A DNA stretch of 64,000 bases from Bdellovibrionota bacterium (GTDB lineage Bacteria; Bdellovibrionota_C; UBA2361; CALJRW01). The DNA lies in contig JBGSMD010000013.1 in assembly GCA_041740355.1 (NCBI GenBank), positions 68,146 through 132,145 on the forward strand, given 5' to 3'. Positions 19,082-36,000 of this stretch are shown here, in pieces; the stretch's first letter is position 1, and each line of letters begins with the position of its first letter. The notes below the pieces were generated by a model. It was not told the origin of the DNA. It did no database searches and saw nothing but the letters and a program-made list of their open reading frames with translations. The translations under genes and the position numbers were made by a program.

Positions 19082-20268
19082 TCAAAGAATTTATCGTTGG
19101 AATTGATTTTAGTGCACTTGATCCTACATTTAAAGAGCACAGTACCAGAGGAATTGGTAAGTATGCCGGGGAATTCCAAAAGTACTTAGAAAAAAATACT
19201 CCTTCAGTAAAGAACTATGGATACTTCAATCACAAGGATCTTTTAGCAGACTCCTTTTTGGCCAAATTAATTGATTATGCACCTGCTGGTCGTCAAACTC
19301 TGAAGCAACAACTGCTCTATCCATTTAAGTTATCAGGCTCCAAGTTAAAGCAATTTTCTCATTTGCATTTTCTTGCACAGACTGATGCTCCAACTTGGTG
19401 TGCCAAGCCCTACATCTTAACTGTTATGGATTTGATTCCAATTGTTTGCAAAGATTTATATCAAGCTGATAACCCAACCTGGCGCTATCATTTGGCTCGA
19501 TATTTTGAATTACAAGCCATAAGAAATTCGGCTAAAATTATTACTATTAGTGAGTGTTCCAAAAATGATTTAATTCAGCACTTAAAAATTCCTGCTGAAA
19601 AAATTTCCGTTACCCCACTTGGTGTTGATGCTGTTTATTTTGAGGAGTCAAGTATAAGTATTCGGGAGATACTTGCAAAAAATAATTTAGCAAATGATTT
19701 AAAATTTTTATTGTATGTTGGCGGCATTGATCCCCGTAAGAATTTTTCAGGGTTATTAGAGACATATGCTGAGTTAAAGAAGTTGTATCAGGAAAAAAAT
19801 ATTTTAAATGACCTGCCGAAACTTTTTTTTGTGGGAAGGATTAATCAGGATCGCGAATACCCTAAATTAAAAGCATTAATATCAAAGCTTGGACTAGATG
19901 GAGATGTTTTAGAACTTGGTTTTGTGGCAGAAACGGAATTAATAACTTTATACCGACACTGCGAAGCCATGTGCTTTTTTAGTCTTTATGAAGGGTTTGG
20001 CTTAACACCGCTAGAAGCGATGGCAGCTGGCGCGACAGTTTTTAGTACTAAGTTATCCGCTATGCCAGAAGTACTGGGAAATGTGGCGCATTATCTTAAT
20101 CCTCAAGCTTCAAGTCAGAATGCTAAGGAAATCTTTGATGTTATTCGCAACCCGGAACAGCGTAAGATTGACCAAGAAGCAGGACCATTACAGGCGCAAA
20201 AATTTACTTGGGATCGCACTTGGGATTTAACTTTAAAAGTTTACGAAGATGCAGCACGATCTTATTAA
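19078..20268 (+). CDS. Glycosyltransferase family 4 (mannosyltransferase-like)
   Basis: YVGGIDPRKN and SLYEGFGLTPLEAMAAG motifs. Confidence 0.92.
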   Translation: MIKEFIVGIDFSALDPTFKEHSTRGIGKYAGEFQKYLEKNTPSVKNYGYFNHKDLLADSFLAKLIDYAPAGRQTLKQQLLYPFKLSGSKLKQFSHLHFLAQTDAPTWCAKPYILTVMDLIPIVCKDLYQADNPTWRYHLARYFELQAIRNSAKIITISECSKNDLIQHLKIPAEKISVTPLGVDAVYFEESSISIREILAKNNLANDLKFLLYVGGIDPRKNFSGLLETYAELKKLYQEKNILNDLPKLFFVGRINQDREYPKLKALISKLGLDGDVLELGFVAETELITLYRHCEAMCFFSLYEGFGLTPLEAMAAGATVFSTKLSAMPEVLGNVAHYLNPQASSQNAKEIFDVIRNPEQRKIDQEAGPLQAQKFTWDRTWDLTLKVYEDAARSY

Positions 20269-21121
20269 TGCTTCCATTCGCTTAGTTAAAGATTTATTTG
20301 CCGATGTAAATTGGTCAGTTGATCTGCAAGCTGAGGCAATTCGCATCCACTCTGAGCTACCAATTAGTTTGGAGCAGCATTCTGCACTTGAGCAAGCAGT
20401 TAGTAGTATGATCTCTTGGCGACAAGGCCCTTACAAGTTATTTGATTATGATCTTAACAGTGAATGGCTAAGCAATATTAAGTGGGAAAGACTAAAAGCA
20501 ATCTTGCCTGATCTCACTGGAAAAACAGTTGCTGATGTCGGCTGTAGTAATGGTTACTTCATGTTTAAATTACTAACACTTAACCCAGCATTAGTATGTG
20601 GTTTTGATCCATTTAAAAACTGTCATTATCAGCACCAGTTATTAGCTCATTTTATTCGTGATCCCCGCCTGCGTTATATAACTCAAGGAGTTGAAGATTT
20701 GCCACAATTTCCGGAAGCTTTTGATTTGATTTTAATGATGGGTGTTCTATATCATCGTCGTGAGCCTGTTCAGTCAATTAACAATCTGTATCAGGCATTA
20801 AAGCCAGATGGAAAAGTATTACTGGAAACTATGGTTTTACCAGGGGAACAACTAGAACCTATTTTGATTCCAGATCGTTATTCCAAAATGAAAAACATCT
20901 ATCATTTAACAACAATTCCTGGTTTAGTACGGTGGACGCAACAAGCAGGTTTTTCTAAGCACCGCCTTCTTTCCATTTCTCAAACTAGTTTGGAAGAACA
21001 ACGAGTTAGTCCCTTAGCTCCTTATGAGAGTTTAGCTGAGTTTTTAGATCCAAAAGATTCGGATTTTACGGTGGAAGGTTTGCCAGCTCCAAGGAGAATT
21101 TTACTCGAATTAACAAAATAG
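20249..21121 (+). CDS. cmoB: tRNA 5-carboxymethoxyuridine synthase CmoB-like
   Basis: WRQGPY, EWLSNIKW, DVGCSNGY, MGVLYHRREP, DRYSKMKN and SLAEFLDP..TVEGLPAP motifs. Confidence 0.85.
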   Translation: MQHDLINASIRLVKDLFADVNWSVDLQAEAIRIHSELPISLEQHSALEQAVSSMISWRQGPYKLFDYDLNSEWLSNIKWERLKAILPDLTGKTVADVGCSNGYFMFKLLTLNPALVCGFDPFKNCHYQHQLLAHFIRDPRLRYITQGVEDLPQFPEAFDLILMMGVLYHRREPVQSINNLYQALKPDGKVLLETMVLPGEQLEPILIPDRYSKMKNIYHLTTIPGLVRWTQQAGFSKHRLLSISQTSLEEQRVSPLAPYESLAEFLDPKDSDFTVEGLPAPRRILLELTK

Positions 21122-21138
21122 TTTACTAGAATAGTCTC

Positions 21139-22098
21139 GTGATTAAATATTTAAAATTAATTTTTGCATTAATCATTTTTGGGAGTCTTTTCCTTGTCGT
21201 TGATTTGTCAGAATTAATTGCTGCCTTTAAGAATATAACTTGGGAATTAGCAGGACTTCTGCTCCTAATTTCATTTGTAATGATTTATATCAGTTCGATT
21301 AAGTGGGGAATTTTCCTTGCAGCAACTGGGATTAAGGCAACGATTGGTAAATTATATAAAATTTACTTACTTAGTTATTTTGTCAACTTATTGTTACCAT
21401 CGTTTGTTGGTGGTGACATTGCCCGCACTTTACTAATTACTGATAAGCAGTCGCGCTCTAAAAGTCTAGCCGCCACATTTATGGAGCGACTAAGTGGCTT
21501 CATCGCGATGTTAATCCTTGCTTTACTTGCTATGCCTTTATTGCCAAACCTAGAGCCAAAGATCGCTTTTACACTCCTTACAATCTCCTTGTTACTATCT
21601 GCAGTAATTATTTTTGCCTTAAAATTTAATTTTAAACTCATTTTTCCAAACAAACCTTTTTTTCAAAAGCTAAGTCCAAAGCTTATTAGCTTTCAAGATG
21701 CTGTGAAAATGATGTTTAGAAAGCCAAAGTTATTGGCGGGCACCTTAGGTCTTTCTTTTCTTTTCCATTGCGTTACAGTCTTAAACACTATTGCAGCCGC
21801 TTTAGCGGTCGGGTGGATCGATTTGCCTGTTATGCAATTGTTTGTTGTCCTCCCAATTGTCTTGTTGATTTCAGCAATCCCACTAACTCCTAATGGCCTT
21901 GGATTACAGGAAGGAGCATTCTTTTATTTTCTTACAATGCTTGGAGCAACTCCAGAAGAGGCACTTGGAGTTGGTTTGATACTAAGAGCAAAATCTTATT
22001 TATTAGCTTTAATTGGTGGGTTGGTTTTTCTTAACTTAAAGAAAAACCAACCCACAGTTTTGTCTAGTTCTAGCCCTGAGGAGCCATTGCAGGAGTAG
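21139..22098 (+). CDS. Lysylphosphatidylglycerol synthase TM/flippase-like protein (UPF0104)
   Basis: NLLLPSFVGGDIAR and IPLTPNGLGLQE motifs; multi-pass. Confidence 0.85.
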   Translation: MIKYLKLIFALIIFGSLFLVVDLSELIAAFKNITWELAGLLLLISFVMIYISSIKWGIFLAATGIKATIGKLYKIYLLSYFVNLLLPSFVGGDIARTLLITDKQSRSKSLAATFMERLSGFIAMLILALLAMPLLPNLEPKIAFTLLTISLLLSAVIIFALKFNFKLIFPNKPFFQKLSPKLISFQDAVKMMFRKPKLLAGTLGLSFLFHCVTVLNTIAAALAVGWIDLPVMQLFVVLPIVLLISAIPLTPNGLGLQEGAFFYFLTMLGATPEEALGVGLILRAKSYLLALIGGLVFLNLKKNQPTVLSSSSPEEPLQE

Positions 22099-23794
22099 GA
22101 GCAGATATAGTCTGGACGTTAAATTTAAATTCTAAAATATCATTCTGATAAGAACTATCTCCAAAGACTACTAAGTTCTTTAGCTCTTCTAGTTTTTTAT
22201 AAAAGGAATCAACTTGAGTGCTTTGATCTGGAGGAATAAACATTGCCATCATACTTCTAAAACTTTGTGCAACACGATACAACTTTGCATAGTCTAAATA
22301 GAAGCTAGTAATAGCATTTTTTGGTGCAAACTTTAAGTTTGAATCCAAAGAGCCAAGTAAGGTAGCAGTAGGAGTAATTAACTCTTTTAGTGCAGTTTCA
22401 GATGTTCCAATCCTAACTTGCTCTGGGGTAGTATTTATATACAACCCGATACCAAAGGGTGTAACCATATACTCTACTGGTTGTTCTGCAATCAACTTTT
22501 CTTGCCATTGCATGTTACCCAACCCAGCATTCTTTTGGCTTGTAATCAGGCTTTTTAGTAAGGCTATCTTTTCCGTAGCATTGGTCATTGGTAATGTTAA
22601 CTGTAAGTCTGGAAAACCAGTAATGTTAAAATTAGTTAATGCAATTCCTAACTCTCCACTGGCTGGAATATAATCAGCAACTTCAGTTAAAGTTTTAGTT
22701 TGCATAACGTTTTGTGGATCAGCAATATCTGTTTTAATAAAATTTAAAACATTTTTTACAAACCCCAAATTTAAGTTAAATCCAAAAAATGTACTTGCCG
22801 AAAAAGTTTCCCAAGCTTTGGATGAGCCATTAGCAAATGCACCTTGCAAATTCGTTGGAAGGGAAGCAATTGGTAAATGAAAACTTAGTTTAGTTTCTGG
22901 AACTTGATCGTAATCACTAGTAAATAATGCTTGTCTTGGAATTAAATTAAGCATTTGCTTGTACTTAGGATTTATTAATCCAACACCAGGAATAAGCTGT
23001 AAAATCTTCTCAAAGTTAGCTACTGCAAAAACAATTGGCTGACCAGAAACATGATCTAAAAGCTCTTTAGGTAAGCTTGTTTTTAGATCATATTTATCTT
23101 CTTGTTCAATAAATAATCTGCTAGCAGAAGTTTGTGAAGTACTTAACGCTAAGTAATTATCATTTGCTAGGATGTGCAACTGAGTGCCTGTATCTGGTAC
23201 ATCAAAAGTTTTTACTAGTGAGGCAGTCTTTGAATCAGCATTTACTGTGCTTGGGGTTAGTCCTACTTTTGTAAACTCTTCAGTAATTTTCTCAAAATTA
23301 TTTGAAAAAAACTTCTTTTCTTTGGAATAGGCAAAGGCATTAAAACTAAAGTCTTGAACAGTATTTCCGGCTATAAAAAATAGGTAATTGCTGACGCGAT
23401 CTTCAGACTGTCGATAAAGACTTAGAGGGTTTTGACCAGTTTGGTCTGAAAACTTTGAAAAAATTTCTGTGACCATTTTATCCTTTCCCTGCATCTTAGG
23501 ATTTTTAAGGCTCTTACTTAAGTTTTCCAAGACATTGCCATACTTAGCAAAAGGACTTTTTAAAAAAGTTTGATATTTAGGGTTTTCTAAGTCAACAAAT
23601 CCATAAAGTAGAGTGTTGTTTGGTAACTTAGCTAGCAAAGCTTGGTCCTCGACGGAAGGCTGGAGTAAGTTAACAACTTTATCTTTTAAATTAGAAGAGT
23701 TGTTACTGTCTTCAGTTTTTTTCTTCCCACAAGCATTTAAAGCTAATATAATGAAAATAAGAAGGAAGATTGTCGCAGAATTAAGCCTTTTCAT
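22070..23794 (-). CDS. Large hypothetical lipoprotein
   Basis: Lipobox LNAC; 574-aa ORF. Confidence 0.75.
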   Translation of the reverse strand: MKRLNSATIFLLIFIILALNACGKKKTEDSNNSSNLKDKVVNLLQPSVEDQALLAKLPNNTLLYGFVDLENPKYQTFLKSPFAKYGNVLENLSKSLKNPKMQGKDKMVTEIFSKFSDQTGQNPLSLYRQSEDRVSNYLFFIAGNTVQDFSFNAFAYSKEKKFFSNNFEKITEEFTKVGLTPSTVNADSKTASLVKTFDVPDTGTQLHILANDNYLALSTSQTSASRLFIEQEDKYDLKTSLPKELLDHVSGQPIVFAVANFEKILQLIPGVGLINPKYKQMLNLIPRQALFTSDYDQVPETKLSFHLPIASLPTNLQGAFANGSSKAWETFSASTFFGFNLNLGFVKNVLNFIKTDIADPQNVMQTKTLTEVADYIPASGELGIALTNFNITGFPDLQLTLPMTNATEKIALLKSLITSQKNAGLGNMQWQEKLIAEQPVEYMVTPFGIGLYINTTPEQVRIGTSETALKELITPTATLLGSLDSNLKFAPKNAITSFYLDYAKLYRVAQSFRSMMAMFIPPDQSTQVDSFYKKLEELKNLVVFGDSSYQNDILEFKFNVQTISAPTPAMAPQG

Positions 23795-24014
23795 GAATTT
23801 GTTTAAATAAAATAGTCAGTTGGAAGCATCCTAACTATAATTACTTAGCATTGTCAAAGATAAATAATGTTCGGTAAGAAGGTGGGCGAGCAAAATAATG
23901 GCTCAAGCATTTTTTGCCATGTAAAATGCACTAAACCCTCTTTCTTATATTTGTTATCTTCAAAAATAATAAGTAAAGGCTTTAATTCTCAACAAAGTTA
24001 CAACGAAGTAAATT

Positions 24015-25217
24015 ATGCAACGTCGACCAAGAAATCCTCAAGAGAAAGCAATCTTAAATAAAAAACCCTGGTCAACTAGAGCAGGAGGAATTGGCTTGGT
24101 TCTTTCGGGTGGTGGAAGTCGCGCTGCCTATCAAATTGGAGCTCTTAAAGCGCTGATTCCCTATTTAGAAAATCAAGAACAGAATCCAATTAAAGTTGTG
24201 ATTGGTTCAAGTTTAGGTGCAATTAACGGACTCTTGATCAGTGCCTGCTTAAAAGAAGGTATTGGACATGCAGTTGAAATCACAGAGACGCTCTGGAAGG
24301 AACGCACTTTTCGAAATACTTTTGCTGACAGTCCAACGAAATCTTTTTTTAGGGCAATTAAGGTTGCTTCCATTCAGTACTTAAACCCTGGACCAAACGC
24401 CAATACTGAATCTATTTTTAATCCTCGTCCCTTAATGGAGCGAGTTGATCAAGTTATCAATGACCATGGTGGATTACATCCAGATAATCGTTATTCACAG
24501 TTGGAGTCTGTTGGCGTTATGACTACTATCGAAGGAGAAACAAGACGTCCGCTACTATTTGTGAGTTCACATAAAGAATTAGAAGCACCGGCAATGTTGG
24601 GCGCTAGTTTTGATGTTTGCTATGTTGATTCACTTCAAGCTAAACATGGATTTGCTTCGGCAGCACTTCCCTCAGTGTTACCACCAGTCGAGTTGGATAC
24701 TAAAGATGGCAAGGTTCGTTTAGTAGATGGTGGAATTTCTCAGAATGTCCCTGTTGATCCAGCTGTACGCATGGGAGCAGAGCGAATTATTTCAATTGAT
24801 ATTTCTGGACGTGACTGGTGGCTAGCTCGACAAAATTCTTCATTAGATACTAGACCTTCGTGGGAAGTCGAGGCCCAAGAAAAAACTTTTTGCTTGCGTC
24901 CACCAGAAACATTTGTGCTTAGATGTCGTAAGCCACTTGGGGAGCTTCTTAAAAATGCTGTTGGTTCTTCTACCGGTAAATTTATCAGTGCAGTCGGACC
25001 AATCTGGCCAATCTTTAAAATTCTTAAAAATCGATTAGGTGAAGAGGTAGCCTATGAAACTCTATCCTATGTCGCACTTGATCCAGATTATATTCAAGGT
25101 CTAATTGAGCGAGGCTATAACGAAACTGTTCATCTTCTCAATAATCGAGTTGAGCCAGCTTTCCATCATCCTCAAAGTTATAAGCAGTTATTGGAAGAGG
25201 TTTATTCCGATTCTTAG
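24015..25217 (+). CDS. Patatin-like phospholipase
   Basis: LSGGGSRAAYQIG, GSSLG nucleophile elbow and DGG motifs. Confidence 0.92.
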   Translation: MQRRPRNPQEKAILNKKPWSTRAGGIGLVLSGGGSRAAYQIGALKALIPYLENQEQNPIKVVIGSSLGAINGLLISACLKEGIGHAVEITETLWKERTFRNTFADSPTKSFFRAIKVASIQYLNPGPNANTESIFNPRPLMERVDQVINDHGGLHPDNRYSQLESVGVMTTIEGETRRPLLFVSSHKELEAPAMLGASFDVCYVDSLQAKHGFASAALPSVLPPVELDTKDGKVRLVDGGISQNVPVDPAVRMGAERIISIDISGRDWWLARQNSSLDTRPSWEVEAQEKTFCLRPPETFVLRCRKPLGELLKNAVGSSTGKFISAVGPIWPIFKILKNRLGEEVAYETLSYVALDPDYIQGLIERGYNETVHLLNNRVEPAFHHPQSYKQLLEEVYSDS

Positions 25218-25284
25218 GACCAAATTAGATACTAAAACACAAATCTATTTTTTTATTGACTTTTCACATCCTGGCACCAATGGG

Positions 25285-25354
25285 AAATAATAAATAATAA
25301 ATAATAAATAATAAATAATAAATAATAAATAATAAATAATAAATAATAAATAAT
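25285..25354. repeat. Perfect heptamer tandem repeat (AAATAAT)x10
   Basis: Counted directly: 70 bp, ten units. Confidence 0.97.
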
Positions 25355-25527
25355 TAAAATTAGTAACAATAGATAGTTGTAGAGTTGTTTACATTTTTGT
25401 TGGTATAGCTCAACTAACTGAAATAACAATATGACTAATGTTGACTAGGGGACATGCAGAGTTTAATCTTAGCAAGATGTCGATTGATTAAGTTAGGTGA
25501 CGATAAGTCGATAGCTATAAGTTATCC
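25346..25527 (+). promoter_or_regulatory. Integron promoter/attI platform, copy 1 (no adjacent integrase)
   Basis: Ungapped match to 27696..27875 (23 mismatches in 180 bp by hand count); the similarity stops just after the core site GTTATCC at 25521. Confidence 0.8.
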
Positions 25528-25544
25528 GACTAAATAATATTCCG

Positions 25545-25844
25545 ATGGACAAAGATGAAATCAATTTAATTGTTGAACTGGTAAACGCCATAAAGTCCGC
25601 AATCCAGCAGACTAAACAATTGTCGGATACTTGTCCCGCGTTTCCATTGTGGCCGAGTATTAATGAGCAATTGGAGCTTCTTAATGTACATTTAGAGCAA
25701 GGACTAAAACCTGATATCGAAACCCTTCAACGTATCGACATCGGCTTGATAGCGGCTCGTGAACTTGAATTTGATTTTCCTGACTACGCTGAATTGCTGG
25801 AAAGTATCGATTATGCAGTTTCTCGTTGGGATGAGCTAAAGTAG
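25545..25844 (+). CDS. Integron cassette gene, Tsi6-like immunity protein
   Basis: SI.EQL..L, L..IDIGLIAARELE..PDYA.LL pattern recalls the Tsi6 family; bounded by GTTATCCGAC and its reverse complement GTCGGATAAC. Confidence 0.65.
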   Translation: MDKDEINLIVELVNAIKSAIQQTKQLSDTCPAFPLWPSINEQLELLNVHLEQGLKPDIETLQRIDIGLIAARELEFDFPDYAELLESIDYAVSRWDELK

Positions 25845-25852
25845 GAACTGTC

Positions 25853-25938
25853 GGATAACAAATCGCGCGACTCGGACGCGACGAAGTGATATAATTTAAT
25901 TGAAGTGGATCGGCCCGCCGGTCCGCGAAACGTTATTT
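25853..25938 (+). mobile_element. attC site 1
   Basis: R'' GGATAAC, arms CGCGCGACTCGG and CCGGTCCGCG pairing with unpaired extra bases, R' GTTATTT at 25932. Confidence 0.8.
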
Positions 25939-25946
25939 TTGATATG

Positions 25947-26465
25947 TCAGTTAGTTTCATTTTTAAAGAAACCGATCCGTCGCTTTGTAAGTTCCATAGG
26001 CTTTTCAAGTTCAGAAATTAGAAAACGAATTTCTTTCAATTCTTGCTCGTATTGTGAAAAACCACTAACCAAGCGACGTTCGATATCTTGAAGTCGTCTC
26101 TTCATTTCAGTATGCTCAGAAAAGATTGCCCGCATTTTTATAAATGTTCTTACAAGCAGAATACTGGCATCAATAGCAATTTGACTATTTAAAATATTTG
26201 CTACCATTACGGCTCCATGTTCAGTAAAAGCATAAGGATTCGTTCTTCGCATGCTCCAATTTGCGGTCGCAAATTGCGACCGCAAATTGCTAACCTCCTG
26301 ATCTTCCAGTTGAAACATGAAGTCATCAGGAAACCTTCTCTTGTTTCGCTTAACTTGCTCATTAAGTCTTTTTGGAGAAACTCCATAGAGGGAGGCAAGA
26401 TCAAAATCTAATATGACTCTGCCTCCACGTAAAGTAAATATGATAGTCTCTAGTTCTATTGGCAT
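25947..26465 (-). CDS. ORF6N-domain DNA-binding protein
   Basis: RG.RVILDFDLA.LYGV, LNEQVKRN..RFPDDFMFQL, PYAFTEHG..M and C-terminal RRIGF motifs. Confidence 0.9.
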   Translation of the reverse strand: MPIELETIIFTLRGGRVILDFDLASLYGVSPKRLNEQVKRNKRRFPDDFMFQLEDQEVSNLRSQFATANWSMRRTNPYAFTEHGAVMVANILNSQIAIDASILLVRTFIKMRAIFSEHTEMKRRLQDIERRLVSGFSQYEQELKEIRFLISELEKPMELTKRRIGFFKNETN

Positions 26466-26648
26466 AAAAATTATTTACTCTTTTTATCGAGAATTTCTAT
26501 AATTAATTGCCTAGAAGATTAAATAATTAAATGTTTTTAATGTTTCACAAGCGAGGAAAGTTGCCAGAATTTAAAGTAAATAATTTCTTATCGGCTAGAT
26601 CTTTTTTCAAGCGGAGTCAGGCTGACAGCCATATTATTTGGCCTGTTA

Positions 26649-27638
26649 TCAAATTATATTTAGATCGTTAGCAATTATATCAAGTGGACTTCTAGTGCCC
26701 ACTCCTTTTTCTTTCGTAACATGAGTGTAAATCATAGTAGTCTTAACACTGCTATGACCTAGAAGGACTTGGACTGTTCTGATGTCACTGCCAGATTCCA
26801 ATAAATGAGTAGCAAAAGAATGGCGAAAGGTATGGCAGGTCACTTTTTTGTTAATACCAGCTTCATTTACAGCACGTGATAGTGATTTTTGTAGGATTGA
26901 TGGATATAAGTGCCACCTGCTTATTTTTCCAGTTCTTGGATCTTTAGAGAGATTTTTCGAAGGGAACAAATATTGCCATTTAAATTCTTTACCAGCACTT
27001 GGAGATTTCCGATCTAAAGCATTGGGCAAAGAAATTCGACCATAGCCATTTTTTAAATCAACCTCATGGATCTTTTTAGATCTTAAGACCTGCTCTTGGA
27101 GATGTAACTTTAAAAAAAGGGGGAGGGGAATCGATCGATCTTTATTGCCCTTTCCTTGCCTAACGATAACTAGATTATTATCAAAATCTAAGTCTTTAAT
27201 TCTTAGCTCCAATGCTTCTGCTAATCTCATTCCGGTTCCATATAGCAAGTAGGCAATTAACCATTGTATCCCATTTAGTGCCCCAAGGATCTTTTTAATC
27301 TCTGAAATACTTAACACCACAGGCAAAAATTTAGTTTCCTTTGCTCGTATTAGTCCTTGAAATTCTCCGGGTTCTTTCTCCAGTCCTTTTTTGTATAAGA
27401 AGACCAAAGCGTTAAGCGCTTGGTTTTGCGTTGACGCGGAAACATTTCTATAAGTAGCTAAATAACTTAGAAACTCAGTTATCTCAGACGCACCCATCTG
27501 TCTGGGATGTTTGCCCTGATGAAATTGAATAAATTTTTTTACCCAGTGAACGTAGCTTTTTTCAGTCACATAGCTTAAGTGAAGGAGTCTAGCCCTCTCC
27601 CGCATAACTTGAAGTAAGCCTTTAGGTTTATCATTCAT
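26649..27638 (-). CDS. intI: Integron integrase (tyrosine recombinase)
   Basis: SASTQNQALNALVFLY, YGTGMR, GKGNKDR, the integron-specific insert (LPNALDRK.P.A...WQYLFPS...DPRTG...RWH), HTFRHSFATHLL and LGH...TTMIYTHV. Confidence 0.96.
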   Translation of the reverse strand: MNDKPKGLLQVMRERARLLHLSYVTEKSYVHWVKKFIQFHQGKHPRQMGASEITEFLSYLATYRNVSASTQNQALNALVFLYKKGLEKEPGEFQGLIRAKETKFLPVVLSISEIKKILGALNGIQWLIAYLLYGTGMRLAEALELRIKDLDFDNNLVIVRQGKGNKDRSIPLPLFLKLHLQEQVLRSKKIHEVDLKNGYGRISLPNALDRKSPSAGKEFKWQYLFPSKNLSKDPRTGKISRWHLYPSILQKSLSRAVNEAGINKKVTCHTFRHSFATHLLESGSDIRTVQVLLGHSSVKTTMIYTHVTKEKGVGTRSPLDIIANDLNII

Positions 27639-27695
27639 GCAAATTCATAAATTGCATACTAATCGCTTATTTATATGAGAAGTTTTTTAAAATTT

Positions 27696-27877
27696 ATAAA
27701 TAATTAAAATTAGTCGAGATCGATAAATGTAGAGTTGTCTACATTTTTGACGGCCTAGCTTAACTAACGGAAATGACAATATAATTAATGTTGACTAGGG
27801 GATATGTAGAGTTTAATCTTAAGAAGATGTCGATTGATTAAGTTAGGTGACGATAAGTCGACAGCTATATGTTATAC
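27696..27877 (+). promoter_or_regulatory. Integron promoter/attI platform, copy 2 (adjacent to intI)
   Basis: Canonical position upstream of and divergent from intI; core site GTTATAC at 27871 begins a cassette whose attC starts with the complementary CCGTATAAC. Confidence 0.85.
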
Positions 27878-27887
27878 GGTTATTTAT

Positions 27888-28241
27888 ATGGCAACCAAAG
27901 ATCCATTTTCATATTCGGGGCGATGGGATTCGGTTGGCCTCGATTGCTCAGACTGTACAAACTTCATCGGTCCACAGCAATGGCCTGATGAAAAGAGGGT
28001 ATCCTCGTGTTCACTCCACCGGCTTTCTCTTGTTATTCAAATTGGTGCAAATGGATACAAAGAGGGGGAATGGTTTTGCAAGGATTTTAGAAATGTAGGC
28101 TCCGCAAATCCTGCTGCAATTGAGGAATTGGAATCAATTCGCTCATCTTTGCTTGAACGCACACTTTATGGAGCTTATGGAAAGGACGGTAATTTGAAAG
28201 AAGTTGACTTTACTAAACTTGCTAGTGATACGTCCGTATAA
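27888..28241 (+). CDS. Integron cassette gene, Cys-rich hypothetical protein (117 aa)
   Basis: ATG 17 bp after the attI core; stop codon inside the attC R'' box; CSDC..F, C.LH and WFC motifs. Confidence 0.75.
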   Translation: MATKDPFSYSGRWDSVGLDCSDCTNFIGPQQWPDEKRVSSCSLHRLSLVIQIGANGYKEGEWFCKDFRNVGSANPAAIEELESIRSSLLERTLYGAYGKDGNLKEVDFTKLASDTSV

Positions 28242-28350
28242 CCATGCAGAGCTACGGATTTTCGCCGCACTGTTTTGTTGAAGCTCTGATTCCAGCGTAT
28301 TATTATAGGGTTAATGGAGCGGCGAAAACCGCAGTCTGCAAACGTTATCT
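28236..28350 (+). mobile_element. attC site 2
   Basis: R'' GTATAAC; arms TGCAGA(G)CTACGG(A)TTTTCGCCGC and GCGGCGAAAACCGCAGTCTGCA with two extrahelical bases; R' GTTATCT at 28344. Confidence 0.92.
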
Positions 28351-28360
28351 TTCAAAATTT

Positions 28361-28957
28361 ATGACCCTTCCTACACAAGAACGCCGAGAACTCGATGATA
28401 CAGAAGGGCATTGGCTCGACCGCAATTCTGTCGTACCAAAAATACTAGATTTAATAAGGACCGGAGGGGTGGAACCTGCTGGACTTACCTTACTCGATGT
28501 AGGTTGCGCAGTGGGACGTGACATAGAAGAATTCAACTCTTGCGGCTTAGTTGCGTCAGGATTGGAGATTAATCCCAAATACGTTTCAACTGGACTTCTG
28601 CAGAATCCTAATCTTCGGATACACGAAGGTGATATGGCTAACCTTCCTAGCCCCTTTGTAGAAGGCTCCTTCGATCTCTTGACTTGCTTTAATACGTTAT
28701 TTTACGGCGACACTGCCGCAGTTTTACCACGATTAATTTCTTGTGTCCGACCTGCTGGATTGGTTGTGGTGACGATTGATGAAAAGATATTACGGCAGGA
28801 TACTAATACAATAATTCATCAGTTAGAGGTGCGCGAGTTACTTAGTTCACTACAAGATGTTGATTTGTTACATCAGAGTTACGGTGAACGAGAGGATAAG
28901 GAACCTTGGCCTCACCGCCACCATTTTTACACAGTAGTTCTTAGGCGGAATGAATGA
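28361..28957 (+). CDS. Integron cassette gene, class I SAM-dependent methyltransferase (198 aa)
   Basis: LLDVGCAVG motif I, GLEIN, GDM and SFDL motifs; start reassigned to the ATG after attC2. Confidence 0.85.
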   Translation: MTLPTQERRELDDTEGHWLDRNSVVPKILDLIRTGGVEPAGLTLLDVGCAVGRDIEEFNSCGLVASGLEINPKYVSTGLLQNPNLRIHEGDMANLPSPFVEGSFDLLTCFNTLFYGDTAAVLPRLISCVRPAGLVVVTIDEKILRQDTNTIIHQLEVRELLSSLQDVDLLHQSYGEREDKEPWPHRHHFYTVVLRRNE

Positions 28958-28980
28958 TAACAAATCGATCGACTGGGCGC
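28955..28980 (+). mobile_element. Truncated attC site 3 (left half only)
   Basis: TGATAAC-AAATCGATCGACTGGGCGC resembles the left half of attC1 (GGATAAC-AAATCGCGCGACTCGGACGCG); no complementary right arm or R' box found downstream. Confidence 0.65.
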
Positions 28981-29515
28981 AGAGCCTTGTTTCATCTTGT
29001 GCCAGGCAACTTTTTCCAGTTCTATTTTACTCCGAGTCAATAATTTCTCTAATTTCTTGAGACTCAAGTATTCTTCTTCCATAGTCAGCAAGTTCATAAA
29101 AACGCTTAAATGCCTCAATGTTATAAATAATATGCTGGGCATGCCCATTTTTACAAAGGATATAAGATTGATTTGAAGTTAAGGCTTATTAGCGAAAAGT
29201 GTTTGATACTAAACTTCGAAAGATTGTACGTATTTCTTAATATTTCCATAGATAAATTTCCATAAAATTTAATTATGATTTATCGGAGATCATAATAAAT
29301 ATTCGTTTATGAATCAAAATAACCTGCTTGATAGAATTATTAGGGAAGAAAATTGCCTGGCACCAAAAAGCAACTCTCCCAATTTTTAAACCTTTAAGAT
29401 AATAAATTACGTAAGATAATCTGTTCTATCAGCAGACCACCTGTCAAATGTCTGTGTTATAGATCACACTGGTTCAGTACTAGAAATGGATGGTAAAAGA
29501 TTTTCCTAGTTCAAA

Positions 29516-30025
29516 TTAATGTAGAATATTGTCGAGATCTGACCATACACAAACTTGCCCGGCACAAGGGAGTACAAGCATCTCGCCACCATCTGTATTG
29601 TGAGTTGGATTATTTGGCCCACCAATCACAACAAACTGGTCACCCTTTATATGATAACCACCAGCAGTAATCTGAGGTCGAAGGCCGCCTAGTCTAAATT
29701 GGTCGATATTAATAGAGGCTTCTGTCAGGACATCAGCTGTTGCACTAAATCCATAAGGGCTTAGAGCTTCAGAGCATGTCCCATCAGGAGCAAGTCCTGT
29801 TAATCCAGCATCAGCACATTGCAAGCTACTTTGAACCTTGGAAACAACACGATCAGTTATGTAGGTTTCAATTGCCATTCTAAGGGTATGAACAGATGAC
29901 ACTGCCTTATGGTTAAAAGCTTTCTGCTTAAATTCCTGATATTGAGCAACAGACATTGCGGCTAAAATGCCTAGGATTGCTACAGTCACTAAAAGTTCAA
30001 CAAGTGTAAAACCAGATTTATTCAT
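29516..30025 (-). CDS. Type IV prepilin-like protein
   Basis: G|FTLVELLVTVAILGILAA N-terminal methylation motif. Confidence 0.9.
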   Translation of the reverse strand: MNKSGFTLVELLVTVAILGILAAMSVAQYQEFKQKAFNHKAVSSVHTLRMAIETYITDRVVSKVQSSLQCADAGLTGLAPDGTCSEALSPYGFSATADVLTEASINIDQFRLGGLRPQITAGGYHIKGDQFVVIGGPNNPTHNTDGGEMLVLPCAGQVCVWSDLDNILH

Positions 30026-30253
30026 TTAATTTTCTATCGAATTCATTTTAGAAAAACTTAACTTTTTGATAGGAATTACTAGAAATGTAACTTAAACTTT
30101 ACTCTGTAGGTTAAGTTGGAGATCCTATTAAAAATTTTTCTAAATGAAATGACCAAATTATTAGCGATAGTCGGTGGAGTGACTCTTGATAGCATCGTAC
30201 CAAAAAGTCAGCCACTGTCTCTGCTACTGTAAGTAAAAATTTGTACTTTAAGA

Positions 30254-30886
30254 TTACTGAAGTCCAAAGATGCTACCGCTATTTGTTTTTCTAATCGGCT
30301 CAGGTGGAGCAATAACTGGAGGTTCTGGGCGAACTGGCCTAATCGGATCTACTGGTGGACGAGGATTAATTGGACGTGGTGGTCGATACCAAGGGAAGCG
30401 GTCATAATAAGGATCTCGGTTTTCTACAACAGTTATTGTAATATTTTTATCGGTTGGTTCATTCAAATTTTTAGCATCAGCCTCTTTTTTAGAACTCTCA
30501 CGGCTAACTTTAATATCAGTCATTGATTTAGTAATTGTATCAACTTTCTGATTTGCTTTATCAGTACAATCTTCTAAAGAACTACTTTGATCATTACAAA
30601 TTGCCAAAACATCTGAAACTAAAAATGTTAAACCAGTTTCACGTTCAGCATCAAACTTTAGTGTTTGTAAATCGTGAACAATCATTTGTTTCTGGTCTCT
30701 AGCGATAGCTTCCGCCGATCTGGGAGTTCTTTGCACTTCAGTAATTTTGCCAAGAACTTCTTCGCTACATGGTTTATTCATCCAAGTACCATTGCAATTA
30801 AAAATTTCAGCGCTAGCATAATTAGAAATTACTAAAAGCATAAGTAGCATTTGTTTCATAACTTCAACTATATCATAATGTGTCAT
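30254..30886 (-). CDS. Secreted hypothetical protein with a Pro/Arg-rich tail
   Basis: Signal peptide ASA|EIFNCNG...KPC; PRPINPRPP tail. Confidence 0.7.
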   Translation of the reverse strand: MTHYDIVEVMKQMLLMLLVISNYASAEIFNCNGTWMNKPCSEEVLGKITEVQRTPRSAEAIARDQKQMIVHDLQTLKFDAERETGLTFLVSDVLAICNDQSSSLEDCTDKANQKVDTITKSMTDIKVSRESSKKEADAKNLNEPTDKNITITVVENRDPYYDRFPWYRPPRPINPRPPVDPIRPVRPEPPVIAPPEPIRKTNSGSIFGLQ

Positions 30887-31152
30887 TGAGATCAGGAAGG
30901 AAGTTCTGAAGTATTAATAAAAAATACTTAAATATTGTGATTGGAATAATTAACTAGTAAATTACACTAGTATTTTCAATATGTTAACATGAGTACAGGC
31001 ACAGGCGTTTATAGTTATCATTAAATATTAGGTATCAATAATTATTTTATAACCATAACTTTGATAGCTTTAGGCTTAATCCTTCGAATTGAGAAAACTT
31101 TGCTTTTCCCGTGATCAAGCATTTGTGAAGTGAGAGCTTCTTCAGCAATTTA

Positions 31153-31300
31153 TATAGTGATGACAAAAAATAAATTACGAAAAAATTAAAGAGATAATTT
31201 TGTTTTTTTGTCATAAGTATATGATTTTATTATCCCTCCGGGGGATAGAAAGCCCCAAAAAGTAACTTCCTTAATTTAATTACTTTTTGGACTCTCTATA
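31153..31300. repeat. Structured intergenic repeat family B, copy 2
   Basis: Colinear with 15213..15361; shares TATATGATTTTATTATCCCTC, GGGGATAGAAAGCCCCAAA and AATTACTTTTTGGACT. Confidence 0.85.
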
Positions 31301-31324
31301 TTTAACTTAAAATTCATTTCGATT

Positions 31325-33448
31325 ATGAGCCCTGGAACAGAACCAGAAAAGCCGATAAGAAAGCAGATCAATCAACTATTTGAATTTTGTTCAAATGAAC
31401 TTCGCAAATTAGGTTTTACACCTAAAGAAGATAGTTTGAAGTGGTTAGATCTGGTTTTTCTATCTCCACAATTAAACTGGAAAGATGCCAGTAAGTTAAT
31501 TCTTTTTGCTGTTAGGGAATGTCGTAAGGAATTTGAATCCGGAAAATTTGACGAAAACTTTGATGTAATACTAAGAGACCGCACAGTTGAAAATTTTTAT
31601 TCTATCTACAATAAATCAATGGGAGTTACACAGCAGAGCAAATCTGCGACTTTAACTCCACAGGTATTGAGCGCACTTACAATTGTAATTTTAGTAGATA
31701 ATATAGCTTATAGTTATCTACAATTAGACCTGGAAAAAAAATCTAAAATTATTCAATTATCATTAGATTATTTTGAAGATTTTTTCGATATAGTTTTAAA
31801 GCTCGCTGAGAAGCTACCAGATGATATTAATCAAATCATGTCGGGTCTGAAGAAAGAGTGTATTGAGAAATATCTTTTTGAGGCTGAAACAAATCCAAGT
31901 TTAAAAAATGTAACTAATGGAATTTTTCATGGAATGCTTTTTACTTTAATGGATCACAGTGATTGGAGTGATGACAAAATTGTATATCAGACTATTTGTC
32001 AGGATAAAAAGCCAGCTGAGTTATATTCAGCTTACAAATTACTTGTAAAAGATGAAGCTGCGACTGAATACGAACAGGGAGTTGAACGCTATCAATCATT
32101 ATTAAAATTAGATAATAGAGAAAGGAGTAGAATAATTTCTGTTATTAATATTTCTGGTATTGAAGTTCCAGTAACTTTTGATTTTTTAATTCAGCATCCA
32201 GAATATAGTCAAATTGCTGATCGAATTAAGAAGTCAAATCAGCTTGATCAAGCAGAAGCTTTTAGTTTATTAATAGAATATTCAAATAAAACAGATCCGT
32301 CTGTTGCGAAGTTATTATTAGAGCTTGGAAATTCTACACCTAAATTAAATTTAGTTCTAAATGGCGAATTCTTAACTGCGCTGGAAACTCAAGACCACAA
32401 TAGTTTTGATCAAATACAAAAATTTCTACTTTTAAATAATGATCCCGAATGTCTTCAAGGACTAGTTAAGTCAATTAAAACTGGAGATGTCTTGCAGACT
32501 AAGCTAATCTTGGAAGCACAAGAATTATTATTTAAAGAATCAGAATTAAAGAGAAAGGTTATTTTAAAAATAGTTGCTATGGATGGGGAAGGTTTACCCC
32601 AAGAATTAACTCGAGATATCGTAATTAAATTAACAGCAAAAGATCCTACAAAATCAACTAGCACTCAAATAGCTTCATCAGTATGTGGAAAAAGAGTTGA
32701 CCCAAAATATAATAAACCCGAGCTTAGTGAAGCCAATCAGGTTTTTAGTAAGTATCAATGTGGACGGCTATTTCGAGAAGCGATTGAGAAGTTTGGCGAG
32801 GAGTCCGACATAGTTAAAACTTTATCTCGTCATCTAGAGCTACATTTAAAATCTAGTTTTTATCAAAGCAGTCTTGATAGCCATCGAATGCGTAGAATTT
32901 ATTTTGAAGTTATTTTAAATAACCCTGAGTATCTCTCTGCTTATGAGCAAAGACTTTTGGAACTTAATCAATTAGCAAATAGCAAAGCCCATCAGGAAGT
33001 TGATTTATTTGCCAGTTGGGTCTTAGCAAAAGAGCAAGAGTCCAAGCAGGGTGAACACCTAGCCTCAAGTATAGAGGATGATGAGGGACAGAAAATTGAG
33101 TTAAGTCAGTCTGGAACTTTTAAGTCACCACCGGCCTTTAGAAGTCTTTTGATTGTAATGCCTTTAGAGCGAGTTAATCAGTTAAGACCTGAGTTAATTG
33201 CTGAACTTGCACCGAAAATAAGTGATATTCGATTTGCTGATTCGGAAAAGTTTGCTCCTTTAAAAGATACAGCTAATAATATTCCTAGCGATCGCCTAGT
33301 GCTTTACATGACTGGTTCTGGTTCCCACTCTAATTTTCTCTCTTTTAAAATGGCCTTACCGCGAGATCATCGTGCGCGGAAGCTTTATAGCTACAAAGGA
33401 AATAGAGAGCTAAAAAAAATATTAGAATTCTTTAATAGCGTAATTTAG
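31325..33448 (+). CDS. Large hypothetical helical protein
   Basis: 707-aa ORF with no recognised motif. Confidence 0.75.
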   Translation: MSPGTEPEKPIRKQINQLFEFCSNELRKLGFTPKEDSLKWLDLVFLSPQLNWKDASKLILFAVRECRKEFESGKFDENFDVILRDRTVENFYSIYNKSMGVTQQSKSATLTPQVLSALTIVILVDNIAYSYLQLDLEKKSKIIQLSLDYFEDFFDIVLKLAEKLPDDINQIMSGLKKECIEKYLFEAETNPSLKNVTNGIFHGMLFTLMDHSDWSDDKIVYQTICQDKKPAELYSAYKLLVKDEAATEYEQGVERYQSLLKLDNRERSRIISVINISGIEVPVTFDFLIQHPEYSQIADRIKKSNQLDQAEAFSLLIEYSNKTDPSVAKLLLELGNSTPKLNLVLNGEFLTALETQDHNSFDQIQKFLLLNNDPECLQGLVKSIKTGDVLQTKLILEAQELLFKESELKRKVILKIVAMDGEGLPQELTRDIVIKLTAKDPTKSTSTQIASSVCGKRVDPKYNKPELSEANQVFSKYQCGRLFREAIEKFGEESDIVKTLSRHLELHLKSSFYQSSLDSHRMRRIYFEVILNNPEYLSAYEQRLLELNQLANSKAHQEVDLFASWVLAKEQESKQGEHLASSIEDDEGQKIELSQSGTFKSPPAFRSLLIVMPLERVNQLRPELIAELAPKISDIRFADSEKFAPLKDTANNIPSDRLVLYMTGSGSHSNFLSFKMALPRDHRARKLYSYKGNRELKKILEFFNSVI

Positions 33449-34722
33449 TTTTGGATTGTATCTCGAATCCGATCTAACTCATCTGCCATGGTATTAAGAT
33501 AACACGAATAAAAGCTTTCCATTAACTTAGTTCTGTTTGATCTGAAGTCCGGAGTTTTATGTTTAATGGACAGTTCGAATAGTTCAGTTAAAATCTTCAT
33601 TGTGGGTTTCTTTTCTAGATCGGCTTTTAAGGTAGCAATTTGTGCCGGATAGTGTCCTTGATTATTACCAATCTCTTTTCCAATGAGTTCATTTAAGGGC
33701 GAGCCTCGATGCTCTTGATCATTAATAAACTGATGCAAGGCTTTTTTAATGATTTGAAGATTTAATAGTTGTGCAGAATCTCTGGTAGATTCGGCAATAC
33801 GTAAATCATATATTTGATATTCAAATGATAGACCGCGACTTGATGTTAGAAATTTATAATCTCCGATAAAATGTATTAACTGAGCTTTGCTAAATTCCTT
33901 TTGATCTAATTTAAAGCTTGCTGGAATGTGAGGAGACATATCCACCATGGCATAAGTTGCGATTCTTACGGCTAGGGAGTGCTCAATGATGTTGATCGGG
34001 ATTGCCATTCCTTGGTAAGCAGCCTTAACCTTAGCGGCAACACAGTCCTTAAATATTACAGCTCCTGTTTCATTAGTGAGTGAAAAATCACGCGTTGGAA
34101 GCTGCGAAATCAATGCTTCGTTATCGCGATTTATGGCTACTTCGAAAAAAGGTACAAAAATTTTATGAATGCTTACAGGCAATCTTTTATTATCCGTAAG
34201 AAGTCCTGCTATTTGGTATTCATGAGACTTAACCTCTTCTTGGTAATTTTCAGCTATAGTAACAGGTAATGAGTATAAGACTACATCTTGAGCTTGATCA
34301 AGAATTAGTGATCTAGGAAATAAGATTGTTTTTTTATCTTGAAAGATTGCTTTGACTAATGGCAATGTCAGTTCTTCATATACTTTAGGAGATAGTTTTG
34401 GAAGTTGCTCTGGAACAGGCAAGTTGTATAGCTTTGATAAATCTTTAATAACCTGAACAATTTCAATGTCTCTTTCAGCTAATGATTTTAGTCTGGCAAT
34501 TGGATTAGCAGCTTTAAGTATTTCGAAATTACGGGCCTTAGTAGTAGCTTCAAAGTTTTTAAGAGTGGCAATTGCTTGTTCAGATTTTGCTAAATCCACA
34601 GTAATTGCTAATGATTCTTGAACTTTAGATATATTAGGATCTTTTTCTTCGGCCTGAGCTATTGGCAAACAACAGAGGCTCAAGCTAATTAATTTACTAG
34701 TTAAAAGGGATTGTGCATTCAT
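33445..34722 (-). CDS. Secreted hypothetical protein
   Basis: 425-aa ORF with a signal-peptide-like N-terminus (AQA|EE). Confidence 0.7.
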   Translation of the reverse strand: MNAQSLLTSKLISLSLCCLPIAQAEEKDPNISKVQESLAITVDLAKSEQAIATLKNFEATTKARNFEILKAANPIARLKSLAERDIEIVQVIKDLSKLYNLPVPEQLPKLSPKVYEELTLPLVKAIFQDKKTILFPRSLILDQAQDVVLYSLPVTIAENYQEEVKSHEYQIAGLLTDNKRLPVSIHKIFVPFFEVAINRDNEALISQLPTRDFSLTNETGAVIFKDCVAAKVKAAYQGMAIPINIIEHSLAVRIATYAMVDMSPHIPASFKLDQKEFSKAQLIHFIGDYKFLTSSRGLSFEYQIYDLRIAESTRDSAQLLNLQIIKKALHQFINDQEHRGSPLNELIGKEIGNNQGHYPAQIATLKADLEKKPTMKILTELFELSIKHKTPDFRSNRTKLMESFYSCYLNTMADELDRIRDTIQN

Positions 34723-34728
34723 TTTTAT

Positions 34729-35373
34729 TTAAAAACTAAAAAACTTAAATTTTGAACGATGTCGATTTTTTTCACTTAAATTCTCTTGGCGAAAAGTTAG
34801 AGTTTGAGTAGCCAAATAACTCTTCCGATCAGCAAGCGATAACTTTGGAACTGTAGGCAGATAATCTTGTGCTAAGGAATGATTACTTGGAGTTGGGCTT
34901 ATTGGAGGCTCAATTTGATTACCTTTAATTATTAATTCTGGTAGTAAACGAGATCTGCTTGGTGCTAAATTAACATTTAGAGTTTTATCGTTACTGGGTA
35001 AAGTTTCAATTTCAAGACTTATTAGAGGAGGGGAAAAGCAGTGATCCAGATTGGTAAGTGGCATTTTACTAAAATTAAAGACCAAGCCTTTTCTTGTTTG
35101 GATAAAGACCGTCAATGCCTCTGATACAGCTGTTTCTGGAACTCGGCAATTTCTAGCAGAGTTAATTATTCTTTGGGCAGATGAAAGTAAACCAGCTTGA
35201 CATAAATTTAGACAATCAGGAAAGATAATTAAAATCTTTTCATCAGGTAATAAATTAAAGCTTAGCGCTCTGGCGTAATTAAGGTCAAGGCTAACAGGAT
35301 CTGTGAAATCTAATTTACTTAGCCTTTTAACCAAGTGTAAATCTAATTTAAATTCACAGACTAGTGAAGACAT
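34729..35373 (-). CDS. Hypothetical protein
   Basis: 214-aa ORF co-oriented with, and 6 bp from, the next gene. Confidence 0.55.
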   Translation of the reverse strand: MSSLVCEFKLDLHLVKRLSKLDFTDPVSLDLNYARALSFNLLPDEKILIIFPDCLNLCQAGLLSSAQRIINSARNCRVPETAVSEALTVFIQTRKGLVFNFSKMPLTNLDHCFSPPLISLEIETLPSNDKTLNVNLAPSRSRLLPELIIKGNQIEPPISPTPSNHSLAQDYLPTVPKLSLADRKSYLATQTLTFRQENLSEKNRHRSKFKFFSF

Positions 35374-35712
35374 TTCCAGATGCTATAATAAACTTTGGCA
35401 GGCATCTTAACTTAATTTGATTGTTAAGGAAGAGGAACTAGACCATTAATTTGCAGATATTTTAATAATTATAGGTAGATAGTAAGTAGGGAAGATGTTT
35501 ATGTTGAGTTACTAACATCCAAAGGTATTTTGAGAAAAGGCATCAACCTTCACTTCTTTATTTGCTAAAGCTAAAGTTTAAAAAAACTTTGGTAGAAGTT
35601 AAAATTTTATGGCTTTTTAGTGAGTTTCGGAGCATGGATCAATATTTAAAAAGTATTGCTAAGTAGTCCTTTTGATTTAATACTTAGATCCTAACTTTAA
35701 TTTGCTATTCCA

Positions 35713-36000
35713 ATGTTTAAAAAAATATTATTGACGACACTTTTTTCTATTCCTGTTAATTTTGCTTTTGCCGGAGATGGGGCAACGATTATTACGGAAA
35801 GTGGTGTTCTGATTAAACTAAAAAATGGGTATGCCCAAATAGAGAGTGCGCTTGCTCAAAATGCGAATAATAAAAAACAAATTGTAGCAGTTAAGATTGA
35901 AGGCGAGACGATACAGTTAAATTTAGATCATGTTTCTTTAATTTGTCGCGATGACTGTAAGGTTGCGGAAATTAGTTATCCAAAAAAATCACAAGATTAA
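35713..36000 (+). CDS. Small secreted hypothetical protein
   Basis: Signal peptide AFA|GD; C-terminal CxxxC. Confidence 0.7.
   Translation: MFKKILLTTLFSIPVNFAFAGDGATIITESGVLIKLKNGYAQIESALAQNANNKKQIVAVKIEGETIQLNLDHVSLICRDDCKVAEISYPKKSQD

Follow-up and report, generated by a model that had tools for sequence, protein, structure and literature searches.

A chromosomal integron of a Bdellovibrionota bacterium with its integrase gene between an attC and an attI crossover

Organisation of the locus

The stretch of DNA analysed here (the window; 64,000 nucleotides, positions 68,146 to 132,145 of contig JBGSMD010000013.1 in the Bdellovibrionota assembly GCA_041740355.1) contains a chromosomal integron of an uncultured hot-spring bacterium in which the integrase gene, intI, lies where a gene cassette would sit. 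Along the forward strand the parts follow one another as an attI-like platform (platform 1), a Tsi6-like cassette, attC1, a block consisting only of an ORF6N gene, intI and a second platform (platform 2, or attI2), then cassette 2, attC2, cassette 3 and the stub of a third attC site (Table 1). The block, here called module E, begins with TTAT directly past the attC1 crossover and its last base is the crossover G of attI2. Instead of one attI with intI outside the array, the locus thus has two platforms that are 87% identical, with intI between attC1 and attI2. An earlier note on the window, made from its letters alone, had described this order of parts together with the platforms, the cassettes, the crossover positions and a length of 1939 bp for the block, and all of these were recovered in our analysis.

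Table 1. Features of the integron and of the island that carries it (window coordinates; ORF, open reading frame)
Feature	Position	Strand	Description
Island	25218-30253		5036 bp; integron, about 530 bp of genome-repeated DNA and a pilin-like gene; absent from same-genus genome G001
(AAATAAT)x10 microsatellite	25285-25354		makes up, and obscures, the left end of platform 1; Logan contigs break there
Platform 1 (attI1-like)	25346-25521	+	crossover G 25521; the 48 nt near the crossover conserved, distal repeat and palindrome degraded
Cassette 1	25522-25932	+	411 bp; Tsi6-like ORF and attC1; start TTATCCG complementary to attC1 R''
Tsi6-like ORF	25545-25844	+	PF18660, 38.7 bits against a gathering cut-off of 26.9, profile positions 3-82 of 83
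attC1	25853-25938	+	R'' GGATAAC ... R' GTTATTT; crossover G 25932
Module E	25933-27871		1939 bp; ORF6N, intI and platform 2 only; ends are the attC1 and attI2 crossovers
ORF6N	25947-26465	-	172 aa; PF10543; downstream of intI on the same strand; stop codon 14 nt past the attC1 crossover
intI	26649-27638	-	intact integron integrase, 329 aa; TIGR02249, 425.4 bits
Platform 2 (attI2)	27696-27871	+	58 nt upstream of the intI start; crossover G 27871
Cassette 2	27872-28344	+	ORF 27888-28241 (117 aa, no family match) and attC2
attC2	28236-28350	+	crossover G 28344
Cassette 3	28345-28985	+	class I S-adenosylmethionine (SAM) methyltransferase ORF 28361-28957, then attC3 stub
attC3 stub	28955-~28985	+	R''/L'' as in attC1; partner arm absent, no hairpin found

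The two platforms, each 176 nt long, give an ungapped alignment at an offset of 2350 bp; when the comparison is carried slightly past the crossovers (25346-25528 against 27696-27878) there are 24 differences in 183 positions (86.9% identity, E 1e-57), which bears out the figure of about 87% first obtained by hand. Both terminate at G/TTAT, and no third copy was found in the 3.27-Mb genome; an exact 26-nt motif of the platforms likewise gave no match in the genome contig collection. Counted as far as the crossover G, the differences are unevenly spread, with 21 in the first 128 positions and two in the last 48; the longest stretch of identity (25474-25511) measures 38 nt. Platform 2 carries a direct repeat (ATTAGTCGAGATCGATA / ATAAGTCGACAGCTATA) and a palindrome (AAATGTAGA-GTTG-TCTACATTT), both of which are kept beside intI and lost from platform 1; this pattern of conservation is compatible with platform 1 retaining the attI core alone, for which it argues weakly. 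Platform 2 has the features of an attI, since it adjoins intI, ends at G/TT and is followed by a cassette whose start is predicted to pair with the R'' box of its attC.

Crossover G residues, as read from the sequence, lie at 25521, 25932, 27871 and 28344, and TTAT follows each of them. At the first, GTTATCCG (from 25521) is complementary to CGGATAAC in the R'' box of attC1 (25852-25859); at the third, GTTATACGG (from 27871) is complementary to CCGTATAAC in that of attC2 (28234-28242), cassette 2 beginning as G/TTATACGG, the complement of this R'' box. The proposal that each GTT core is complementary to the R'' box of the next attC therefore holds, over the first 7-8 bases of each cassette. 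As cassette starts complementary to the R'' box of their own attC are the signature of attI x attC insertion, platform 1 appears, on this sequence signature, to have served as an attI at least once.

Both attC1 and attC2 fold into R''/R' and L''/L' stems with bulged bases, the architecture of attC sites, and the fold energy of attC2 lies well outside that of its shuffles (z -3.5, 0 of 200 as good). We accept attC1 as a predicted attC site because of its canonical architecture, its 8-nt complementarity to the start of its own cassette and its likeness to the attC3 stub, with which it has the first ~18 nt in common. An attC scanner run over the whole genome at a duplex energy of -16 or below returned 38 rows, four of which were attC1 and attC2 on both strands, and among these rows there was no other pair of sites within 3 kb; a search of 20000-36000 against Rfam at E <= 1 found neither an attC nor any other match of relevance. 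The cassettes on either side of module E have G+C contents of 43.1, 43.6 and 44.1%, compared with 37.5% in intI and ORF6N and a genome value of 36.3%. This likeness on both sides, and that of attC1 to attC3, fit a single cassette pool split by module E. A candidate attC between ORF6N and intI (GTTAT at 26645, beside the intI stop codon) was rejected, as 26480-26600 holds no R'' (TAAC).

The integrase matches TIGR02249 over profile positions 1-313 of 315 (cut-off 265) and aligns with the structure of Vibrio IntI4 (2A3V; E 1e-83, query residues 12-320), and the alignment shows the integron-specific insertion before the last catalytic block. What we take to be its catalytic residues were aligned with those of IntI4 by eye. 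Directly past the attC1 crossover G come TTATTTTTGATATG and then the ORF6N stop codon, so that the 3' end of ORF6N, and no cassette, follows attC1 just as had been claimed. The ORF6N product matches PF10543 (116.7 bits, cut-off 27.8), the PADLOC defence candidate PDC-S05 (165.5 bits) and PHROG families of phage anti-repressors, and three paralogues (53-60% amino acid identity) occur elsewhere in the genome in unrelated contexts. Being anti-repressor-like, matched by PDC-S05 and one of a four-copy family scattered in its own genome, ORF6N is most likely a passenger gene outside the recombination machinery.

Assembly, relatives and genomic setting

The genome is a metagenome-type assembly of 74 contigs, and the arrangement was checked against Logan contigs of four runs (not reads; k=31 graph). 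One unbranched contig of run X1 (25482-26673) joins the core of platform 1, the Tsi6-like gene, attC1, ORF6N and the 3' end of intI; further X1 contigs cover 27161-27861 and 27832-30600, and a contig from a second run (X3) covers 27727-27909. The X1 contigs break exactly at the 38-nt run common to both platforms, where a k=31 graph is expected to break if both platforms are present. Contig depth is even, ranging from 4 to 15 over intI and from 10 to 12 on either side. A near-perfect 33-nt palindrome (26257-26289) lies within the coding part of ORF6N, and several foreign contigs of X1-X3 match the locus only around there.

Integron integrases were found in 27 of 61 related genomes at E <= 1e-40, this genome's own included. 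The best identity to IntI was 64% in 91 genomes of the order, 64% among genome contigs (where the named records closest in IntI belong to Bdellovibrionota) and 55% among metagenome contigs; viral contigs were also searched. Among 5.8 billion protein clusters the best relative, encoded on an 8.9-kb ENA contig, reached 73%, with others at 65-67%, and IntI's own cluster is a singleton on one contig. The integrons of the relatives have an ordinary layout, their attI regions ending in TGTTAT or ATGTTC some 230-340 nt from the intI start, with attC arrays on that side only. In the closest IntI relative within a single-contig genome (G041, loci L011/L035; 62%), intI has an in-frame TAA and is probably inactivated, and at least five attC-like sites remain in an intact array.

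A second platform was sought by blastn, with the 380 nt upstream of intI as query and the remainder of that locus as subject. The comparison could be made for 85 of 100 loci in one set, 73 of 80 in another and 32 viral loci (190 in all, the sets overlapping by a few genomes), of which 33, 51 and 25 (viral), or 109, had at least 2.5 kb beyond intI. None of the 190 had a direct-orientation second copy beyond intI. Distant matches were on the array side (L095, L115, L132, L144, L170, L186 and L143), with L072 as the sole exception, and the remaining rows of the first locus set were short repeats and palindromes within the queried stretch itself. On the metagenome contig L072, positions 7858-8039 hold a copy, in inverted orientation, of 82 nt of the intI-proximal region (78%) with about 30 codons of an intI 5' end, 4.4 kb beyond a complete intI, and by its sequence this copy appears to be the decayed remnant of a second integron. 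L095 has a DEAD-box helicase gene directly upstream of its intI, enclosed by a 143-nt direct repeat (62-204 and 2749-2891, 92%); the repeat lacks a GTT end and was rejected as an analogue.

A scan of 103 loci for neighbouring ORF6N genes (including second, larger cuts of four places) found ORF6N adjoining intI in only one other genome, G037 (loci L018 and L034; 44.6% identity). One of 80 genome-contig loci (L142) gave the same values and is probably from the same genome, whereas none of 56 viral intI loci had ORF6N beside intI and no intI lay within 4 kb of 10 viral ORF6N loci. G037 was rejected as a second instance, because its ORF6N flank, with GTTAT at the stop codon, has a phage-type integrase, no attC and no repeated platform. 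Of 57 loci with 1.5 kb or more beyond intI, 37 had some match of the attC scanner there, the convincing ones resembling integrons with an inverted integrase.

The integron sits within the 5036-bp island. In G001, a genome of the same genus whose orthologous genes have 72-78% DNA identity to those here, a patatin gene and a convergent gene for a 210-aa protein are 6 bp apart; here the island separates them. As it is absent between the same flanking genes, the island appears from this comparison to be specific to the present lineage. A 10-nt direct repeat, GACCAAATTA, occurs near both island ends (25219-25228 and 30151-30160) and may be a target duplication or an att site of the island; the number expected by chance is low, but in DNA so rich in A+T it is not to be neglected. 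Immediately following the attC3 stub, 28991-29367 resembles two other places in the genome, on C16 (94%, 52 nt) and C64 (74-84%, ~330 nt), and may be a small repeated element that shortened the array. The island also has a type IV pilin-like gene with an N_methyl motif (29516-30025), missing at the site in G001; pilin-like N-termini number dozens in the genome. Outside the island, a hairpin-rich region upstream of a gene for a 574-aa protein (21902-22135) drew weak, sub-threshold Rfam matches (RAGATH-19, group I intron, miRNA hairpin), which are probably chance matches or a terminator.

Origin of the arrangement

The best explanation of these observations is that the locus is a real and intact chromosomal integron and the one-off product of integrase-catalysed recombination, which placed ORF6N-intI-attI2 between two att crossovers. 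That the integrase made the architecture, by whichever route, we consider probable, because in every scenario that we could construct an attI once abutted the ORF6N end at the crossover G or within 14 nt of it, and a random breakpoint falling there would be rare. As to the route, we tentatively favour the arrival of intI together with attI out of a related integron lineage: both would have come on a circle or co-integrate that recombined with a resident attI or attC, the joining reaction being attI x attI or attI x attC, and the Tsi6-like cassette would have been either resident already or captured later. Arrival from another lineage is preferred because direct attI repeats should not last long enough to reach 13% divergence. 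In the portion of PMC12901181 available, IntI1 is described as excising and re-inserting attC-ORF-(delta)attI units, with excision of 4-80%, and as excising attI1-aadB-attI1 at 100%. The divergence of the platforms had been taken earlier to indicate two related lineages; this is reasonable, but the platforms may instead stem from an old duplication in place, given that orthologues within the genus are themselves only 72-78% identical.

Three nested excisions would be formally possible, of 411 bp between attI1 and attC1 (the Tsi6-like cassette alone), 1939 bp between attC1 and attI2, and 2350 bp between attI1 and attI2. The second is the circle put forward in the earlier note, and its geometry agrees with ours, attC1 and attI2 being in direct orientation. 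The two larger excisions would remove intI and leave an attI array without an integrase. The 13% divergence points to a separate origin of the platforms or to poor recombination between them, and the latter would weaken the idea of excision. In our view the arrangement is a by-product of the integrase at work, not a dedicated mobile element.

Several observations weigh against this explanation. The fold energy of attC1 is not significant (z -0.5; 61 of 200 shuffles as good), and the attC scanner was a crude tool built for the analysis, with noisy output where loci are rich in G+C. Two attI copies in direct orientation would be expected to be unstable, yet these have diverged by 13%. A consensus scan found no sigma-70-like promoter, as a candidate Pc, inside either platform; both share the hexamer TTGACT, but it has no good -10 partner. 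No listed Logan contig bridges 25285-25481, which holds the 70-nt microsatellite and the distal part of platform 1. Finally, the arrangement is a single instance, its closest IntI is 73% identical, and the DNA of loci could be compared only at IntI identities of 64% or less.

Duplication in place, which we consider unlikely, would yield the same geometry as the favoured route. It supposes an unequal, IntI-mediated exchange between sister chromosomes, in which attI recombined with a secondary GTT site 14 nt past ORF6N to give a tandem ORF6N-intI-attI; the first ORF6N-intI copy was later lost, with the microsatellite as the deletion scar, and the platforms drifted to 87%. The microsatellite at the left end of platform 1 indeed starts inside a motif, ATAAATAAT, that is also present in platform 2, the G+C content of intI and ORF6N is host-like, and the distance between same-genus orthologues means that 13% could arise within the lineage. 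However, no remnant of a first intI or ORF6N was found left of platform 1, and direct attI repeats are expected to be lost fast, given the complete excision reported for attI1-aadB-attI1 in the available text of PMC12901181. The 38-nt identical run allows homologous deletion too, so that long coexistence of the two copies is hard to explain.

The earlier note had gone further and proposed a dedicated, self-excising 'integrase cassette', whose attC x attI circle would reinsert at other attC sites and supply integrase-less arrays. The geometry is exact for such a unit, which would have a TTAT start and an attI crossover as its end, the platform divergence fits arrival from another lineage, and the attC-ORF-(delta)attI cassettes handled by IntI1 (available text of PMC12901181) offer a precedent. 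Nevertheless, we judge an active or recurrent cassette of this kind improbable. Contigs of the four runs contained no circle or empty-site joints, and as contigs drop rare variants this is no evidence against excision itself; IntI is a singleton on one contig among the proteins searched, and none of the collections searched gave a second context for it; no other intI locus of those compared has a direct second platform; and the ORF6N-intI-attI block occurs in none of the related genomes or contigs searched, the sole other ORF6N beside intI, in G037, having the phage-type flank described above. Excision would also carry the unit's own integrase gene away on a non-replicating circle, usually a dead end. 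The stricter proposition that ORF6N-intI-attI is a true mobile integrase cassette, a non-replicating circle able to insert at any attC or attI, appears quite improbable.

A duplication without IntI is likewise quite improbable. Here, the intI-proximal region of ~180 nt would have been copied beyond ORF6N, by ordinary duplication or by the decay of a neighbouring integron, and would later have captured the Tsi6-like cassette. The left end of module E, at the GTTATTTTT sequence behind ORF6N, would then not be a recombination junction; once a cassette is captured, its attC is followed by whatever DNA stood to the right of the attI copy. A complete integron can have decayed parts of another beside it, as in L072, but the copy would have to end, on its right, inside the 14 nt that separate the ORF6N stop codon from the crossover G, an unlikely coincidence for a random breakpoint.

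Least of all do we credit a mis-join of the assembly, in which strain variants or a 2.35-kb circle (platform, Tsi6-like cassette, attC1, ORF6N, intI) were chained through the 38-nt run or the microsatellite: the Logan contigs break at both 38-nt copies and at the microsatellite, the graph alone permits a swapped pairing and the genome comes from a metagenome-type assembly, but both repeats are shorter than ordinary reads, the link from attC1 through ORF6N to intI lies within one unbranched contig of even depth, and the swapped pairing, with platform 1 in the chromosome and intI, attI and a cassette on a circle, would be at least as unusual.

Comparison with known integron systems

In the textbook integron, intI and attI form a fixed platform and the cassettes alone move. 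In the present locus the platform is bounded by recombination sites of its own system, so that, if the integrase can act on these sites, the platform could be moved, or could disappear and leave behind an orphan array that keeps an attI; this bears on the origin of integrase-less arrays and on the spread of intI between lineages. If the mobile cassette were true, intI would spread without transposons or plasmids and integrase-less arrays would become working integrons. Even as a static by-product, the locus would be a naturally occurring case in which the platform of an environmental chromosomal integron took part in attI x attI or attI x attC recombination. In terms of what we take to be the IntegronFinder classes CALIN and In0, excision of module E would leave an integrase-less array, while a free intI-attI unit would presumably be an In0; here both states would lie in one locus, whereas a CALIN is by definition without attI.

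According to the available text of Cury et al. (2016, PMC4889954), sedentary chromosomal integrons share with this locus an IntI with the family-specific region, a divergent intI, crossover at G/TT, an attI ~230 nt upstream of intI and promoterless-looking cassettes each ending in attC. The present locus differs in its second attI-like platform and in the cassette past the 3' end of intI, so that att sites flank intI, and its array is very short, with one cassette on one side and two on the other. Integrons with an inverted integrase (the Treponema type in that same text; L092 and L107 among the relatives) also have attC on the 3' side of intI, but in them the attI and array directly follow intI; here ORF6N intervenes, and beyond it attC1, the cassette and attI1 all face the same way as the main array.

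In the literature searched, which included the available portions of PMC4889954, PMC8618304, PMC9176274 and, with its supplements outside the search, PMC12901181, we found no account of an intI gene lying within a cassette-like unit. The last of these papers (2026, citing Partridge 2009) deals, in the text available, with laboratory-tested (delta)attI-type cassettes of class 1 and 2 integrons, which have an attC or attI crossover upstream and attI sequence replacing attC downstream. Positions 25933-27871 have the same boundaries, with the crossover G of attC1 upstream and that of attI2 downstream. In the tested units, as far as that text extends, what is carried is a resistance gene or ybeA, and most of the attI pieces measure 14-18 nt, although the units mobilised by IntI1 include one with 244 nt of attI2; here the cargo is an integrase gene with ORF6N, the platform is the full 176 nt and the setting is an environmental chromosome, known from sequence alone. 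Notwithstanding these differences, the (delta)attI-type cassette is the closest published concept, and the locus extends it to a full attI with an integrase gene as cargo and beyond the clinical class 1 and 2 integrons.

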